DNA of 64,000 nt, from the sequence record NC_028957.1, one strand, 5' to 3'. The stretch's first letter is position 1; each line of letters begins with the position of its first letter. The position numbers were made by a program, and so were the translations under genes. The notes beneath the pieces were generated by a model. The model did no database searches. It was not told the origin of the DNA and was given only the letters and a program-made list of their open reading frames with translations. The DNA is from Escherichia phage vB_EcoM_VR26. Below, piece after piece: positions 22,412 to 45,548 of the stretch.

Positions 22412-23577
22412 CAGTTAAATCTATGCAGCGTGAAGGCTTTCCTAATATCAGCATCCGCCTTTATGAAGATTATGATGCGTGGCTTGAACACCGTTTTGTA
22501 GAACTAGCCGCCACCTTTACAACGTTAACCATGCGTGATTCCCTTTATGGAAGAAACGAGGGGTTGTTGCAATTCTACGATACGAAAAACCTGCATACAA
22601 AAATGAATGGTGAACAGGTTATTCAGATTTCTGTTAAGAATGCCAACTCTGACCGAACCCAATCCAGAATATATGGAAGCAAACACTTTGCAGTTTCTGT
22701 GGATTCAAAGGGTGATAACATAATTACAATTCAACTGGCACCTATTCACGAAATTGAAGACCTGAAATTTAGTCGTATGTTTTACCCGAGTGTACAAGAA
22801 ACATTAGTCGAAATGACCGGGGTAATTTATCAAGACAGGCCCTTACTTGCTCCTCCTATAAACGGAATCAACGTTTATGCTCCTAATGTTCCATGGTGTG
22901 ATTCGATGAACCAATATATGGAATTCATAAGGGAAGTGGGTCTTGCAGTTGAGTCTGATAAATTTGTATTTGTGTGGGAAGATATTGATGGCATCAGTAT
23001 CCAGGATTATGAGTGGTTAACTGCACAAGAGCCAATTAACTTTGTCGTAGGGGAACCTCGATTGATTGGTCAGTTTGTGCAAAACCTCGATGCTCCGTTA
23101 GCCTTCGATTTTGAATGGTTAACAAAGGCAAACCAACACACAAGAAAACCATATGAAAACGCAACCGTGTATGCGCATTCATTCCTTGACAAGAACGCAA
23201 CCAGAATAACTTTTGGGGAAGGTCAAAACAGTATTCTGGTATCTCGTTCCGGGGGCTATTCGGATTACACGTACCGAAATGGTTTCGAGGAAGCACAACG
23301 ATTAATAACCATGTCTCAGTATGACGGTTACGCACATTGCAAAACGTACGGGAACTTTGAATTAACCCCGGGTGATAAGATAAATTTCTTTGACCCTAAG
23401 AACCAATTCAAATATGATTTTTACGTAGACGAAGTTATTCATGAAGTGAGTAACAATACATCAATTACAAACCTCTATATGTTTACCAATGGTAAGCCTA
23501 TCGAAGTTGAAGAACCACCGAAGGTTAAAAATGAACTTAAAACTGATTCTGCCGACGAAGAAAATACAGCTGGGTGA
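22408..23577 (+). CDS. 27: Baseplate hub subunit gp27
   Basis: 389 aa (T4 gp27 391 aa); synteny. Confidence 0.9.
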
Positions 23578-24049
23578 TAAAGAGATTCATGTACCCAAGC
23601 TTGGGCTTAAGCATCACAATCTGATTAAAAACGAGGCCAACCCTTACGCTGCATTAAGAAAGGTTATGCAATCGATATTCCCTAATCTTACAGCAGCCGA
23701 ATCCGACTTTGTATCCTTACATCTTCTGGAATTCAATGGTAAGCTAAAAGACAAACGCGAGATTAACGGATTTACATATAAGCTGGATGATGTTTATATC
23801 TGTCAACGTCTTGAATTCTCTTATCAAGGAAAGACATTTAAATTCCGCTCGAATAAACCGTATGAAGAATTTGGGCCAGTTGACAATCTTCTGGAGACTC
23901 TTTATCTCGGGGAAGATGTTCCAGACTTTCTGGATATGCCTGCTTTTGTTGCTAAGTGGGCAGACGATATCACAAGCACATTAGCAATCCCGGGCCCGAA
24001 TGGTCCTGTTAAGGGGTTACTGAAAATAATGGAACTCCTAAATGAATAA
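23531..24049 (+). CDS. 28: Baseplate hub distal subunit gp28
   Basis: 172 aa from internal ATG ([11 protein letters not shown]); T4 gp28 177 aa; alternative start 23489; overlaps gp27 3-prime end. Confidence 0.75.
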
Positions 24050-41349: not shown

Positions 41350-41640
41350 TCATTTGCAACGTTCCTCTTTTAGTTCAGAACGATAATAACATAACATACC
41401 TTTTTGGTCATGTACATATCTTTTTACATCATTCATCCAAATCCTGAATTCTTGCGATGCTTCAAAAGGCATACCAACCCAGGCTTGACCCTCAATTACC
41501 TTCACTTCCCATTGCTGCTTATAATCAGCCAATGCAACAGGCCAATTAGGATGAACTTGGATTGTGGGCTCCACAACGGGCTTCTGGGCACATGAAACGA
41601 GTCCGATAGCCAAACATACTGCCATGATAGATTTCATCAT
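41350..41640 (-). CDS. Outer-membrane spanin (Rz1-like lipoprotein; T4 pseT.2 equivalent)
   Basis: 96 aa; signal peptide with lipobox LVSC (MMKSIMAVCLAIGLVSCAQ); directly follows i-spanin. Confidence 0.65.
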   Translation of the reverse strand: MMKSIMAVCLAIGLVSCAQKPVVEPTIQVHPNWPVALADYKQQWEVKVIEGQAWVGMPFEASQEFRIWMNDVKRYVHDQKGMLCYYRSELKEERCK

Positions 41641-41990
41641 TTGGTGAGCTCCTGGAAGTCCTGGGCAAACTTATCAAAGGACTGATTAATCTGTTTTTCA
41701 ACTAATTTAGGCTTAGCTGCCACAACCTTAGTACGTTTTGCATCTGCGCGAAGTTTATCATTTTCCTTCTGCAGAAGTTCAACATATTCCTGGCGCTCCT
41801 GGTCAAGGAGATTAATTTGATTAACCTGGTCTTTTATTGATTGCAGATTTTTTGCGTTATCTTCTGCAACTTTGGTGACCGCAGCCACCTCTGTCTTGAG
41901 ATTATCCACTTTTGCTTTTAGATAGAAACCACTACCAGCAGTTACTACCAGGGCAAGCATAAGCCCTGCGGTCAGATTACTTATTTGCAT
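41637..41990 (-). CDS. Inner-membrane spanin (Rz-like; T4 pseT.3 equivalent)
   Basis: 117 aa; N-terminal transmembrane helix then charged coiled-coil region. Confidence 0.65.
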   Translation of the reverse strand: MQISNLTAGLMLALVVTAGSGFYLKAKVDNLKTEVAAVTKVAEDNAKNLQSIKDQVNQINLLDQERQEYVELLQKENDKLRADAKRTKVVAAKPKLVEKQINQSFDKFAQDFQELTK

Positions 41991-42484
41991 AACTTGATGA
42001 TTACCTCAACAATATCATCCTGGGATAAACCATTCAGGAGGATGTGATTTGTACTGTCAGATGCTGAAATGCGGAACTGATTACCAACTTCATCCGCCAT
42101 ATCATCCTGGGTTAACACTGGGTGTTTAATTCCCAGGCGGTGTTGAAGTGTCAGGGGTTCAACCACAACATAACAAACACATCCATTGATATGCACATTA
42201 GGTTGGGTCTGATTGATGAACACTTCTGCATCATATTTAACCAAATGGTTCTTTAAGAAGTCAACCATTTCTGGAACAGATTCATGAAGGGCTTCTTTCC
42301 GCTCTTCTGATTTCTTATTGCGATATTCCTTCTGTTTGGTCTTCAACTTATTATCAGACGCCAGTTTCTTTCTTAAGTCAGTAAGGAACCCAACATTTTT
42401 GGAACCTTTATAAACATAGATTCCGTCATGGCGGTCACCATATACATCAACAATCATATCATTTGAAATCAGTTGCATATTCAT
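41981..42484 (-). CDS. alc: Alc-like protein (host transcription termination on C-DNA), putative
   Basis: 167 aa from internal ATG (T4 Alc 167 aa), GAGGA Shine-Dalgarno; position between rnlA and the spanins as in T4. Confidence 0.5.
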   Translation of the reverse strand: MNMQLISNDMIVDVYGDRHDGIYVYKGSKNVGFLTDLRKKLASDNKLKTKQKEYRNKKSEERKEALHESVPEMVDFLKNHLVKYDAEVFINQTQPNVHINGCVCYVVVEPLTLQHRLGIKHPVLTQDDMADEVGNQFRISASDSTNHILLNGLSQDDIVEVIIKLCK

Positions 42485-42494
42485 AATATTTTCC

Positions 42495-42728
42495 TCAATA
42501 GCGGTTATAACCTCTAGGACCAAAAGAGTTTGCACCCAGGCGCTCATCTTTCTTTTTAGCTCTTGCTCTAAACCCAGAATCACCTGTTTGGTCTTTCAGT
42601 TCTTTTAACAATTTGGCCTTCAGGTCAGTAATGAAACCAATCCGGCGGTCTCCCTTGTAGACATAGATTCCATCATTTCTGTCGCCATATGCCTTTGTAA
42701 CTCTGTCATTTGAAATTAAGTTTAACAT
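42495..42728 (-). CDS. Truncated paralog of the Alc-like N-terminal domain
   Basis: 77 aa; LISNDRVTKAYGDRNDGIYVYKGDRRIGFITDLKAKL versus downstream LISNDMIVDVYGDRHDGIYVYKGSKNVGFLTDLRKKL; GAGGA Shine-Dalgarno. Confidence 0.45.
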   Translation of the reverse strand: MLNLISNDRVTKAYGDRNDGIYVYKGDRRIGFITDLKAKLLKELKDQTGDSGFRARAKKKDERLGANSFGPRGYNRY

Positions 42729-42759
42729 GTTTTGGTCCTCATCAGTAGTTGATGGAACC

Positions 42760-42789
42760 ATTATGTATAGAAAGAAGGGGCTTGTACAC
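42760..42789 (-). promoter_or_regulatory. Early-type promoter (GTGTAC-N18-CATAAT) overlapping rnlA terminator hairpin
   Basis: Minus-strand elements upstream of 42495..42728. Confidence 0.4.
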
Positions 42790-42791
42790 CC
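42776..42791 (-). terminator. Hairpin after rnlA (GGGGTGTACAAGCCCC)
   Basis: 4-bp GC stem with 8-nt loop then T-rich tract on minus strand. Confidence 0.4.
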
Positions 42792-42799
42792 CTTTTTTA

Positions 42800-43936
42800 T
42801 TATTCAGGCAGGATTACATCCGCTTGGTAGTCCGCTGGGATGTAAAGTTTATGATTTTTAAGGAAAACATTATTGATTTGAGCGATAGTTTGCTCTGTTT
42901 CCTGGGGACGTTGATAGGTGTTCATTAATACAGAGAACAAACCCGGATATGGTTTACACAGTTCTTGACCTTTAATCGCAAACTCGCGTCGGTCTTTTCC
43001 TGCCAACTGTTTCTGGGCATCAAGCAACAGTCCCAGGGTATTGGACAGATAATCCAGATGGGTCAAAGTAAAGGCATTAACTTTTTCACGAGCATACTCA
43101 TCGCCAGTAAACATGGCAATAACATCATCTGCACCGCCTGCAACAACAACTTCAAAAAGACGCTGGTTATTGTTAACAGAATCCTTTGTATGGTGTAAAG
43201 CACAATACCATTCTGTCTTAACTTTAAATTTGCGACCATCGACCAGCTCATAGACAAAGCCTTCAATCTCTTTCATATCACGGACGTTTTCAATTGTAGC
43301 CGGGTCATATGCTTCAACCAGGAATGGACGAAGCGCTGCATCTTTAAACAAATCCTGATAAGGGATATATTCACCAGTTTCATTATGGCGAACGTTCAGT
43401 AAAATCAGGTCACGTTCCTGGTAAGGCAAAACAATGCGGTTGGTTGGCGCAACATATTCCATATTGCATGTATAACCAGCTTCAGTAATTTCAGTTACGC
43501 GCTCACGGAAAGCTATACGGTGTTCTTGTTTGAATACCTGCAGCGCTTCTGCAGCCTGGGAGCTTTTGATTGACCCTTTGGATTTAAAAGCAATATTGGT
43601 CTGGTCCATATAAGTGGAGACAAGAGAGCCATCGGCCTTGGTCATGACCAGCGCAACTTCATCCATATTGATATCCATGGTCAACGGATTTTCGCCTAAG
43701 TTAAAGAACTTTTCCATAGGACGAGCCGCAATACGAACTGGACCATCTGCATCCATTTCAAACATAATGCCGCGGCACTCTAATGCATCATCAAGGAGCC
43801 AATCACTATAGGAAGCATAGTTATAGCTAAAGATGCGGAACTTGGTTTCAAATGGAGAAACGAAATCAGTATAGAAAAACTTACCTTTTTCAGATTCAGC
43901 ACACAGCTTCATTAAGTTGTCATATAATTCAATCAT
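42800..43936 (-). CDS. rnlA: RNA ligase 1 (Rnl1)
   Basis: 378 aa (T4 Rnl1 374 aa); FYTDFVSPFETKFRIFSYNYASYSDWLLDDALECRGIMFEMD near-identical to remembered T4 Rnl1. Confidence 0.93.
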   Translation of the reverse strand: MIELYDNLMKLCAESEKGKFFYTDFVSPFETKFRIFSYNYASYSDWLLDDALECRGIMFEMDADGPVRIAARPMEKFFNLGENPLTMDINMDEVALVMTKADGSLVSTYMDQTNIAFKSKGSIKSSQAAEALQVFKQEHRIAFRERVTEITEAGYTCNMEYVAPTNRIVLPYQERDLILLNVRHNETGEYIPYQDLFKDAALRPFLVEAYDPATIENVRDMKEIEGFVYELVDGRKFKVKTEWYCALHHTKDSVNNNQRLFEVVVAGGADDVIAMFTGDEYAREKVNAFTLTHLDYLSNTLGLLLDAQKQLAGKDRREFAIKGQELCKPYPGLFSVLMNTYQRPQETEQTIAQINNVFLKNHKLYIPADYQADVILPE

Positions 43937-44343
43937 TTCTTCACCTTATGTTGGTAGTTCCACGGGGGATTAAAAAGCTTTATGAACATCGGCTCTTCCA
44001 GAGACATAGTTTCGACTGACATCGTACCAAGTTCATTGGTCATTGATAGATTGAAACATTGTCGTGCATAGAATACCACCTTTTGACCTGCATGTAAAGC
44101 TTCATGTATCATCCGGGATTTGTTTGAATCACTCGTTTGTTCTATACGATTGATTGCAGTCCGGTAATAATTGATTCGCTTCTTCAGGTTGTTCGTCTTA
44201 CCAATATACACTAGTTCGTCGTCAACTGAAATAGCGTAGATAACATTTTTCTTGTTCGCGAGTGTAAGGGTAGGGATTTTACCATCGACTAACTCTAACT
44301 CCGCATATTTTATAAAACTGTATTCGTCAGCGATTTGTTTCAT
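43933..44343 (-). CDS. denA: Endonuclease II (GIY-YIG family)
   Basis: 136 aa from ATG (same as T4 DenA); IYAISVDDELVYIGKTNNLKKRINYYRTAINR near-identical to remembered T4 DenA. Confidence 0.9.
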   Translation of the reverse strand: MKQIADEYSFIKYAELELVDGKIPTLTLANKKNVIYAISVDDELVYIGKTNNLKKRINYYRTAINRIEQTSDSNKSRMIHEALHAGQKVVFYARQCFNLSMTNELGTMSVETMSLEEPMFIKLFNPPWNYQHKVKK

Positions 44344-44345
44344 AG

Positions 44346-44366
44346 ACAAAAAGGGCCGAAGCCCTT
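44346..44366 (-). terminator. Terminator after nrdB (AGGGC-cgaa-GCCCT then T-run)
   Basis: Hairpin between nrdB stop and denA start. Confidence 0.6.
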
Positions 44367-44369
44367 TCC

Positions 44370-45548
44370 TTATAGATATTTACGGAAACCAGCAAGAACA
44401 TTCTCATCGACGTCATTGTCAATCTGGGCTACCAGGTAAGCGGACAACTCAACTTCTTGTGGCGCAGATTGCACATTATCAGAATTGAGATATTCGCGAA
44501 TCCATGGAATCGGGTGCTTAGTAGATTCTAACACGATTTCACAAGGGAGACCGCATTGCTTCATACGAGAAACTGTCAGGTAATCGATGAACCGGTTAAG
44601 AATCTCGACGCTCAGCCCGGGGAGTCCACCATCTTTAAACAGATGCACAGCCCATTCTTTTTCCTGGCGATTGACTTCCATAAAAATGGCTGCGGCTTCT
44701 GCTTCGCATTCTTGAGCGATTTTAACCCATTCGTCACCGTCAACACCGGTCTGCAGCTGACGAAGAATATATTGGGTCCCCTTAAGGTGGAGCTGTTCAT
44801 CACGGGCGATGAACTTCATTATCTTCGCATTGCCTTCCATGATTTCCATGTTCTTATGGAAGTTGAAAGTACAAGCAAAAGATACATAAAAACGAATGGC
44901 TTCCAGCGCATTAATGACATGAAGGCAGAGATAAAGAGACTTCATCAATGCTCGTTTGGCAATAGCTTCTTGTGTGATAGCTCGTTCCAAACGTTGGTCC
45001 GCTTCGGGAGTTTCTTTGGCTAGTTCAATAAAAGCAATCTGGTTTTGCCATTGACGAGTTTTATTCAGAACGTCGTCATAATAATGTCCGATGGATTCGG
45101 CTCGCTTCATGATTGCATCATCTAACAGGATTTCGTCGAATACCTTCGCCGGGTCTGTATAGAGATTTCGCATGATGTGTGTATAAGAACGAGAGTGAAT
45201 TGTCTCGCTGAATGTCCAGGTCTGAATCCATGTATCAAGACTTGGGTCAGAAACTAATGCGGCTAATGCTGCAGCTGGAGCACGGCCCTGGATACTATCC
45301 AGAAGTGATTGGTATTTCAGGTTATTGGTAAAAATATTTTGTTGATGTTCAGGAAGCTTATTAAATTGAGCCCCGTCCATCATCAGGTTTACTTCCTCGG
45401 GTCGCCAGAAAAAACTCAACTGCTTTTCACAAAGCTCTTCAAAAACTTTATGACGCTGGATATCATACCGGGCGATGCCCAATCCAGAACCAAAGAACAT
45501 CGGCTCGGCTAAAACATCCACCGGAGTGGTATTAAAAACTGTACTCAT
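44370..45548 (-). CDS. nrdB: Ribonucleotide reductase small subunit NrdB (no intron)
   Basis: 392 aa contiguous (T4 NrdB 388 aa, intron-interrupted in T4). Confidence 0.95.
   Translation of the reverse strand: MSTVFNTTPVDVLAEPMFFGSGLGIARYDIQRHKVFEELCEKQLSFFWRPEEVNLMMDGAQFNKLPEHQQNIFTNNLKYQSLLDSIQGRAPAAALAALVSDPSLDTWIQTWTFSETIHSRSYTHIMRNLYTDPAKVFDEILLDDAIMKRAESIGHYYDDVLNKTRQWQNQIAFIELAKETPEADQRLERAITQEAIAKRALMKSLYLCLHVINALEAIRFYVSFACTFNFHKNMEIMEGNAKIMKFIARDEQLHLKGTQYILRQLQTGVDGDEWVKIAQECEAEAAAIFMEVNRQEKEWAVHLFKDGGLPGLSVEILNRFIDYLTVSRMKQCGLPCEIVLESTKHPIPWIREYLNSDNVQSAPQEVELSAYLVAQIDNDVDENVLAGFRKYL

Follow-up and report, generated by a model that had tools for sequence, protein, structure and literature searches.

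A conserved truncated paralogue of the Alc N-terminal module directly upstream of alc in Escherichia phage vB_EcoM_VR26

Mutations in rpoB block the Alc protein of bacteriophage T4. T4 Alc terminates E. coli RNA polymerase on cytosine-containing DNA and needs dispensable region I of the polymerase beta subunit to do so, a property known only for T4 Alc, and its mechanism beyond this beta-region requirement is unsolved (PMC2988021). Alc halts the host polymerase only on unmodified cytosine DNA, and which part of it contacts the polymerase and which senses DNA is unassigned. Here we analyse a 64,000-nucleotide stretch of the genome of Escherichia phage vB_EcoM_VR26 (sequence record NC_028957.1; hereafter the window), in which a small open reading frame (ORF) of 77 codons plus a TGA stop (42495..42728, minus strand) lies directly upstream of alc (41981..42484, minus strand; 167 amino acids, aa). 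A model-made, sequence-only reading of the window had taken this small ORF for a truncated paralogue that repeats the N-terminus of the downstream Alc-like protein, and had considered both a modulator or antagonist of Alc and a duplication remnant.

The gene already carries names. In GenBank it is named alcb in the phage SP18 record of 2010, where it is described as 'similar to N-terminal region of bacteriophage JS98 Alc', and VR7ORF243c in the record of VR7. The VR26 protein matches PHROG 17715 ('inhibitor of host transcription') with an E-value of 3e-54, its residues 1-77 lying on profile positions 1-77 of 77. All three are the same gene as the small ORF at full length, with 94-100% protein identity, and bear only a similarity-inferred name. 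No functional or structural study of the small gene, or of Alc domains, was found in the searchable literature. The small gene, a lineage-restricted variant within the Alc family, has been annotated before, with its function left uncharacterised by prior work.

An Alc-type module with a conserved tail of its own

The small protein and its 167-aa neighbour share 31/62 identities (BLASTP, E 2e-18), although downstream of about residue 45 they agree mainly through a common lysine and arginine richness, and the solid shared part is residues 1-45. Against the Pfam ALC family (PF17527; curated cut-off 25 bits) the small ORF scores 37.1 bits (E 3e-9) on model positions 3-62 of 177 only, whereas the neighbour scores 173.5 bits (E 4.3e-51) on positions 1-176. 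The neighbour also matches PHROG 1253 (E 4e-75) and is about 56% identical to T4-type Alc. Its identity as Alc, previously described as positional, is therefore no longer just that, and judged on its sequence the 167-aa protein is a genuine member of the family. It has the full Alc architecture of about 165-170 aa (an N-terminal module or N-module, a long helix and a C-terminal alpha/beta domain), which is absent from the small ORF. In an alignment of 28 rows (25 diverse Alc proteins, together with the small ORF and two copies of it from databases), six columns are invariant (I6, G16, D20, G21, I22 and G32) and two nearly so (D36 and L37). All eight belong to the N-module, the most conserved part of Alc, and none of them is lost from the small protein. 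The suggested truncated paralogue of the Alc N-terminal domain thus holds up on alignment as well as on Pfam.

The predicted structures place the end of the similarity at a domain boundary. An AlphaFold2 model of the neighbouring Alc (mean predicted local distance difference test score, pLDDT, 92.8; predicted template modelling score 0.70) has a short helix at residues 8-15, a beta-hairpin at 17-33, a continuous helix at 34-80 that is very rich in lysine and glutamate at about 46-64, and an alpha/beta domain at 87-166. The small protein is predicted to repeat this helix-hairpin-helix start in its N-module (codons 1-44, 42597..42728, minus strand; alignment and AlphaFold2), with a short helix spanning residues 7-14, a beta-hairpin spanning 22-32 and a further helix that begins at 33, so that in the models the shared part stops precisely at the end of the Alc N-module. 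Alc residues 46-167, that is the charged helix and the C-terminal alpha/beta domain, have no equivalent in it. Confidence is high over residues 11-40 of the small protein (pLDDT 90-92) and about 50 or lower in the tail, a low value that may partly reflect the underlying alignment, which held three full-length tail sequences, two of them 99% identical. The small-protein model had no fold match in the PDB better than E 4 (Foldseek), and a sequence search of the PDB with Alc returned nothing. For the C-terminal domain of Alc, the best match among solved structures is the C-terminal domain of MotA, at the level of fold and with 10-14% identity; this domain, the sole portion of Alc whose fold is DNA-binding-like, may be the DNA-binding part of the protein.

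From codon 45 to codon 77 (42498..42596, minus strand) the small protein has a lineage-specific tail that is predicted to be disordered. The divergence into a basic tail described by the sequence-only reading is real, with Alc homology ending near residue 45. Its motif, GF..R.G.NSFGP...N.[FY], ends at the C-terminus and is invariant across the three lineages that carry the gene, namely the genus of VR26 and two uncultured sister lineages described below; the common residues are G52, F53, R63, G65, N67-S-F-G-P71 and N75, plus the C-terminal aromatic residue. We found no similarity between the tail and the rest of Alc, in frame or frameshifted (hhalign probability 0.2%; shuffle tests), and an origin of the tail from downstream Alc sequence was rejected for lack of signal in any frame by either approach. 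No further copy of the motif turned up in the rest of the window or in positions 1-50,000 of phage vB_EcoM_VR25. The tail is a new conserved C-terminal peptide motif, probably disordered.

Selection on the gene was measured by pairwise Nei-Gojobori ratios of non-synonymous to synonymous substitution rates (dN/dS) in the window and 14 relatives, in all of which the gene is intact at 77 aa. The ratio is 0.11 for the whole ORF, 0.037 for tail codons 43-77 and 0.35 for the N-module codons, the last figure having few substitutions behind it. Variable codons of the tail show 11 synonymous changes against 2 replacements, one of the synonymous ones being AGA to CGG at Arg72. Over the last 29 codons dN/dS is 0.02 in the frame of the small ORF, compared with 1.49 and a stop in one haplotype in the overlapping frame that would extend Alc upstream. 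This contrast identifies the small-ORF frame as the coding one. The ORF is conserved in these genomes and in the two sister lineages. The option of a duplication remnant does not fit a gene that is intact in all examined, with low dN/dS (0.02-0.04 in the tail) and with its tail motif kept at 47-48% protein identity. On this comparative evidence the small ORF is evidently a translated gene maintained by selection, not a remnant.

Several database entries differ from this gene model. In records MW233709, OQ845958 and PQ671644, alc is annotated as 188-189 aa by a start inside the small ORF in the other frame. We consider this extension an artefact on account of the contrast in dN/dS between frames, which also rules out the 188-200-aa 'extended Alc' of some annotators (ORF 41981-42583, minus strand). 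An 88-aa form of the small protein starting from an ATG at 42761 is ruled out by an in-frame TAA in SP18. Product names in record PQ765507 are off by one gene, which gives the small ORF the name 'RNA ligase'. In record PQ341120 it appears as a 'PRC domain-containing protein', a label we could not reproduce: a PRC barrel was rejected since Pfam gave only ALC at E<=1, NCBIfam gave nothing at E<=10 and Foldseek nothing better than E 4.

Origin, expression signals and genomic setting

A full-length match to the small ORF, with a second Alc-like place in the genome, was confined to about 33 Gaprivervirus records among 50,697 phage records. In a set of 1.84 billion representative proteins, an N-module profile picked out 18. 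Full-length Alcs aside, the short matches comprised a 34-aa fragment, one T4-type alc with a frameshift (P0035), one alc that is split (P0042, L021) and the small-ORF family itself (P0002 and P0037), and no other stand-alone N-module protein was found in this set beyond the small-ORF family. P0037 (78 aa) and a 77-aa relative lie on metagenomic contigs (L015, L016 and L017) in the order rnlA-small ORF-alc, and represent two uncultured sister lineages whose Alcs are 80% identical to that of the window and whose small proteins are 47-48% identical to that of the window. Between lineages, the small protein is 47-64% identical and Alc 76-80%. The small ORF is absent in L018-L020 (Alc 63% identical), in the T4-like phage RB32 and in JS98.

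This distribution shows that the small gene arose once, in the common ancestor of Gaprivervirus and the two sister lineages. It did so by tandem duplication of the 5' part of alc along with the early-promoter-like region of alc, an origin that fits the small ORF having taken over that region. Recent gene conversion between the two genes was not seen and was rejected: their nucleotide identity is 60-62%, third positions agree in about half of cases, and identical runs reach at most 11-16 nucleotides. Within the genus, the first 45 codons of alc (42350-42484) come in two alleles, DMIVDVY...GSKNVGFLT and EMIVNEY...GTKKIGLMT. Synonymous divergence is 0.31 in these codons compared with 0.09 in the rest of alc, and is also raised, to 0.19, in the adjacent small-ORF tail (42498-42596). 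This pattern of divergence looks like a recombination patch across the junction of the two genes. Separately, in a distant T4-like phage (metagenomic contig SRR10769897_2867, L021:2894-3431) alc is split into ORFs of 61 and 111 aa, both matching Pfam ALC, with the break near the middle of the long helix. The split alc has no relation to the tail-bearing small-ORF family, and may reflect an assembly error, a pseudogene or a gene that is truly divided.

The two expression signals named in the sequence-only reading are present, the second with a qualification. The small ORF has its own Shine-Dalgarno sequence, GAGGA, at 42736-42740, 7 nucleotides upstream of the ATG. An early (sigma-70) promoter-like site (42760..42788, minus strand; 9/12 matches) consists of a -35 hexamer TGTACA at 42783-42788, a 17-nucleotide spacer and a -10 hexamer CATAAT at 42760-42765. 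A consensus scan by itself does not exceed chance (9 sites against 7.2 expected), so the case for a promoter is made by positional conservation after rnlA. A GTTTAC...TAnnAT site follows rnlA in every T4-like phage examined (L015, L016, L018, RB32 and JS98), and the window has the variant GTGTAC, then CATAAT. The site precedes alc in RB32, JS98 and L018, and the small ORF in the window, L015 and L016. At the other end of the gene, the stop overlaps the Shine-Dalgarno sequence of alc in TGAGGAA (42491..42497, minus strand, as read from the sequence; alc ATG at 42484). The same arrangement, 6 nucleotides before the ATG, occurs in L015 and in L016/L017, so that the stop lies within the alc ribosome-binding site in all three lineages. 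Because the TGA lies inside the GAGGAA ribosome-binding site of alc, translation of the two genes is likely to be coupled. The small ORF is the leading gene of an operon of promoter-like site, small ORF, alc and spanins, and is likely to be expressed early together with alc.

The short interval after rnlA (42725-42794, minus strand) combines this promoter-like site with two further predicted elements. A GC-rich terminator-like hairpin with a T-rich run follows directly after the rnlA stop (42775..42794), with the -35 hexamer in its loop, and a second hairpin, specific to read-through RNA (42725..42766), pairs the Shine-Dalgarno sequence and start-codon region with sequence at or just after the -10 hexamer. 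The 81-nucleotide stretch folds with a minimum free energy of -24.3 kcal/mol (z -3.9) in the window. Equivalent hairpins have z-scores of -4.3 in L016 and -6.3 in L015, and, upstream of alc, of -4.8 in RB32 and -4.1 in JS98. Four other lineages thus have a hairpin that hides the ribosome-binding site and start codon, built from arms that differ in sequence (L015:989-1060, L016:2694-2770, L022:830-910 and L023:836-915). Since the 5' arm overlaps the proximal promoter, transcripts from that promoter would be without most of this arm, and only long transcripts could hide the Shine-Dalgarno sequence and AUG of the small ORF.

All genes in this part of the window are on the minus strand, in the order nrdB (44370-45548), denA (43933-44349), rnlA (42800..43936), small ORF, alc, pseT.3 (41637..41990) and pseT.2 (41350-41640). 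The gene rnlA, encoding RNA ligase 1, was assigned from the ORF list and the annotation of relatives. The i-spanin gene pseT.3 was assigned from PHROG 739 (E 6e-36) and the annotation of relatives, and overlaps the end of alc by 10 nucleotides; pseT.2 is likewise a spanin gene. The slot from rnlA to the spanin genes is typical of alc in T4-like genomes, and the small ORF sits within it, between rnlA and alc. The 1-kb stretch around the small ORF is 98.9% identical to Escherichia phage vB_EcoM_VR25 and shares 92-99% identity with 32 records from the genus Gaprivervirus (VR7/SP18 group); the window belongs with these VR7/VR25/SP18-like phages.

What the small protein may do

Gaprivervirus is reported to be without dCMP (deoxycytidine monophosphate) hydroxymethylase, while alc, denA, denB and gene 56 are kept, and published surveys find the genus without any known enzyme for hydroxymethylcytosine synthesis (PMC12115623, PMC8056088). 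In VR25 (NC_028925.1, L024), gene 56 is present and a 167-aa protein (23422-23925) lies between uvsX and imm in place of beta-gt and gene 42. It has no Pfam match and matches only PHROG 1754, where function is unassigned.

That the small protein modulates or antagonises Alc, as had been suggested, is plausible. Our preferred reading, to which we hold tentatively, is that it is a selected duplicate whose N-module docks where Alc docks and which tunes Alc. Under it the N-module would be the docking module of Alc, and the small protein would occupy the docking site, most plausibly on host RNA polymerase, and sit there without a DNA-reading head. Whether as a competitor or as a partner, it would thereby adjust Alc-dependent shut-off, and its tail may add a separate second contact. 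Of this reading, the mechanistic step is the least secure. Instead of occupying a common site, the N-module might be a surface by which Alc associates with itself, or might bind the C-domain of Alc, giving mixed complexes that carry an extra tail and are short of one DNA-reading head, by analogy with microProteins and Id-type proteins. Co-transcription and probable translational coupling with alc suit such stoichiometric assembly, the domain-only architecture fits it, and a 45-residue module rich in hydrophobic residues suggests an interface; however, oligomerisation of Alc is presumed only, and variants of the small protein do not follow the two N-module alleles of Alc within the genus. We regard this partnership as unlikely. 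A comparably low probability attaches to the small protein being an independent early effector, in which the duplicated docking module delivers the new tail motif to a host machine, RNA polymerase or other, unrelated to discrimination by Alc between cytosine-containing and modified DNA. The tail is as conserved as the N-module, is under the strongest constraint (dN/dS 0.02-0.04) and is unrelated to any part of Alc, and the faster divergence of the small protein (47-64% identity against 76-80% for Alc) is as expected on its own evolutionary track. Yet the motif matches nothing known and has no further copy in the window or in positions 1-50,000 of VR25, and its being strictly linked to alc in each of the three lineages points to a functional tie.

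The genus-wide gap in DNA modification raises a further alternative, that the small protein tempers or retargets Alc as an adaptation to unusual phage DNA chemistry, so that the phage's own DNA would still be transcribed. VR25 has neither gene 42 nor beta-gt between uvsX and imm, in line with the reported gap in the genus (PMC12115623, PMC8056088), and among isolated phages the small ORF was found in Gaprivervirus only. This is, however, a single evolutionary co-occurrence without statistical weight; no second Alc-like match occurred outside Gaprivervirus among the phage records searched, and the Acinetobacter phages ZZ1 and 133 carry Alc with no known modification enzyme (PMC8056088). We consider this adaptation improbable. 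At the far end, a decaying remnant, or a leader ORF needed for the act of translation and not for its peptide product, would be in keeping with a short ORF that adjoins its parent gene and whose stop overlaps the alc ribosome-binding site. Against it stand the low dN/dS, overall and in the tail, the many synonymous changes including that at Arg72, the retention of length and tail motif at 47-48% identity and the retention of all invariant N-module residues, which together make it very improbable.

Returning to the preferred reading of a docking duplicate, its value lies in what it would say about Alc. As an N-module-only version maintained by natural selection, the small protein is a ready-made tool for dissecting Alc: its binding partner would reveal the role of the N-module, and a comparison of Alc activity in its presence and absence would indicate whether phages adjust shut-off. 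That the genus reportedly lacks the enzyme for making hydroxymethylcytosine sharpens the question. In its most specific form, which we think rather unlikely, the small protein would be a dedicated regulator of Alc in one enterobacterial T-even lineage without dCMP hydroxymethylase, acting by occupancy of the docking site or by pairing with Alc and sparing the phage's differently modified DNA. Were that so, the 45-residue N-module would be the long-sought element that docks on RNA polymerase and the MotA-like C-domain the sensor of DNA modification. The immediate value is modest, for this is a known, lineage-restricted small gene; it would be greater if regulation of Alc or a polymerase-docking module were revealed.

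Comparison with known systems

The closest relative is T4 Alc itself (PF17527, PHROG 1253), to which the small protein is homologous over residues 1-45 with all invariant positions kept; it also resembles T4 alc in its place after rnlA, behind an equivalent early-promoter-like site. Because it has a new C-terminal motif instead of the charged helix and C-terminal domain, termination on cytosine-containing DNA is not to be assumed for it. T4 MotA, with an N-terminal domain that contacts RNA polymerase and a C-terminal 'double-wing' DNA-binding domain, has a two-head layout comparable to that of the Alc model. Its N-module is, however, unrelated to that of Alc, and the small ORF has no counterpart of the MotA-like C-domain.

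Two further comparisons concern logic and control. In T4, the ribosome-binding sites of genes e, 49, soc and I-TevI are masked by hairpins when they lie on read-through transcripts. The predicted hairpin upstream of the small ORF is similar in that its 5' arm overlaps the proximal promoter, but in the T4 cases this promoter is a late or middle one, and that of the small ORF looks early. Truncated-paralogue regulators such as plant microProteins and Id-type helix-loop-helix proteins keep the interaction module of their parent, lose its effector or DNA-binding part and are expressed with it. On the models, the small protein likewise keeps the N-module of its parent and is without the DNA-binding-like domain. 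It differs from these regulators in having a conserved motif of its own, and the likeness is an analogy of logic, not of ancestry.
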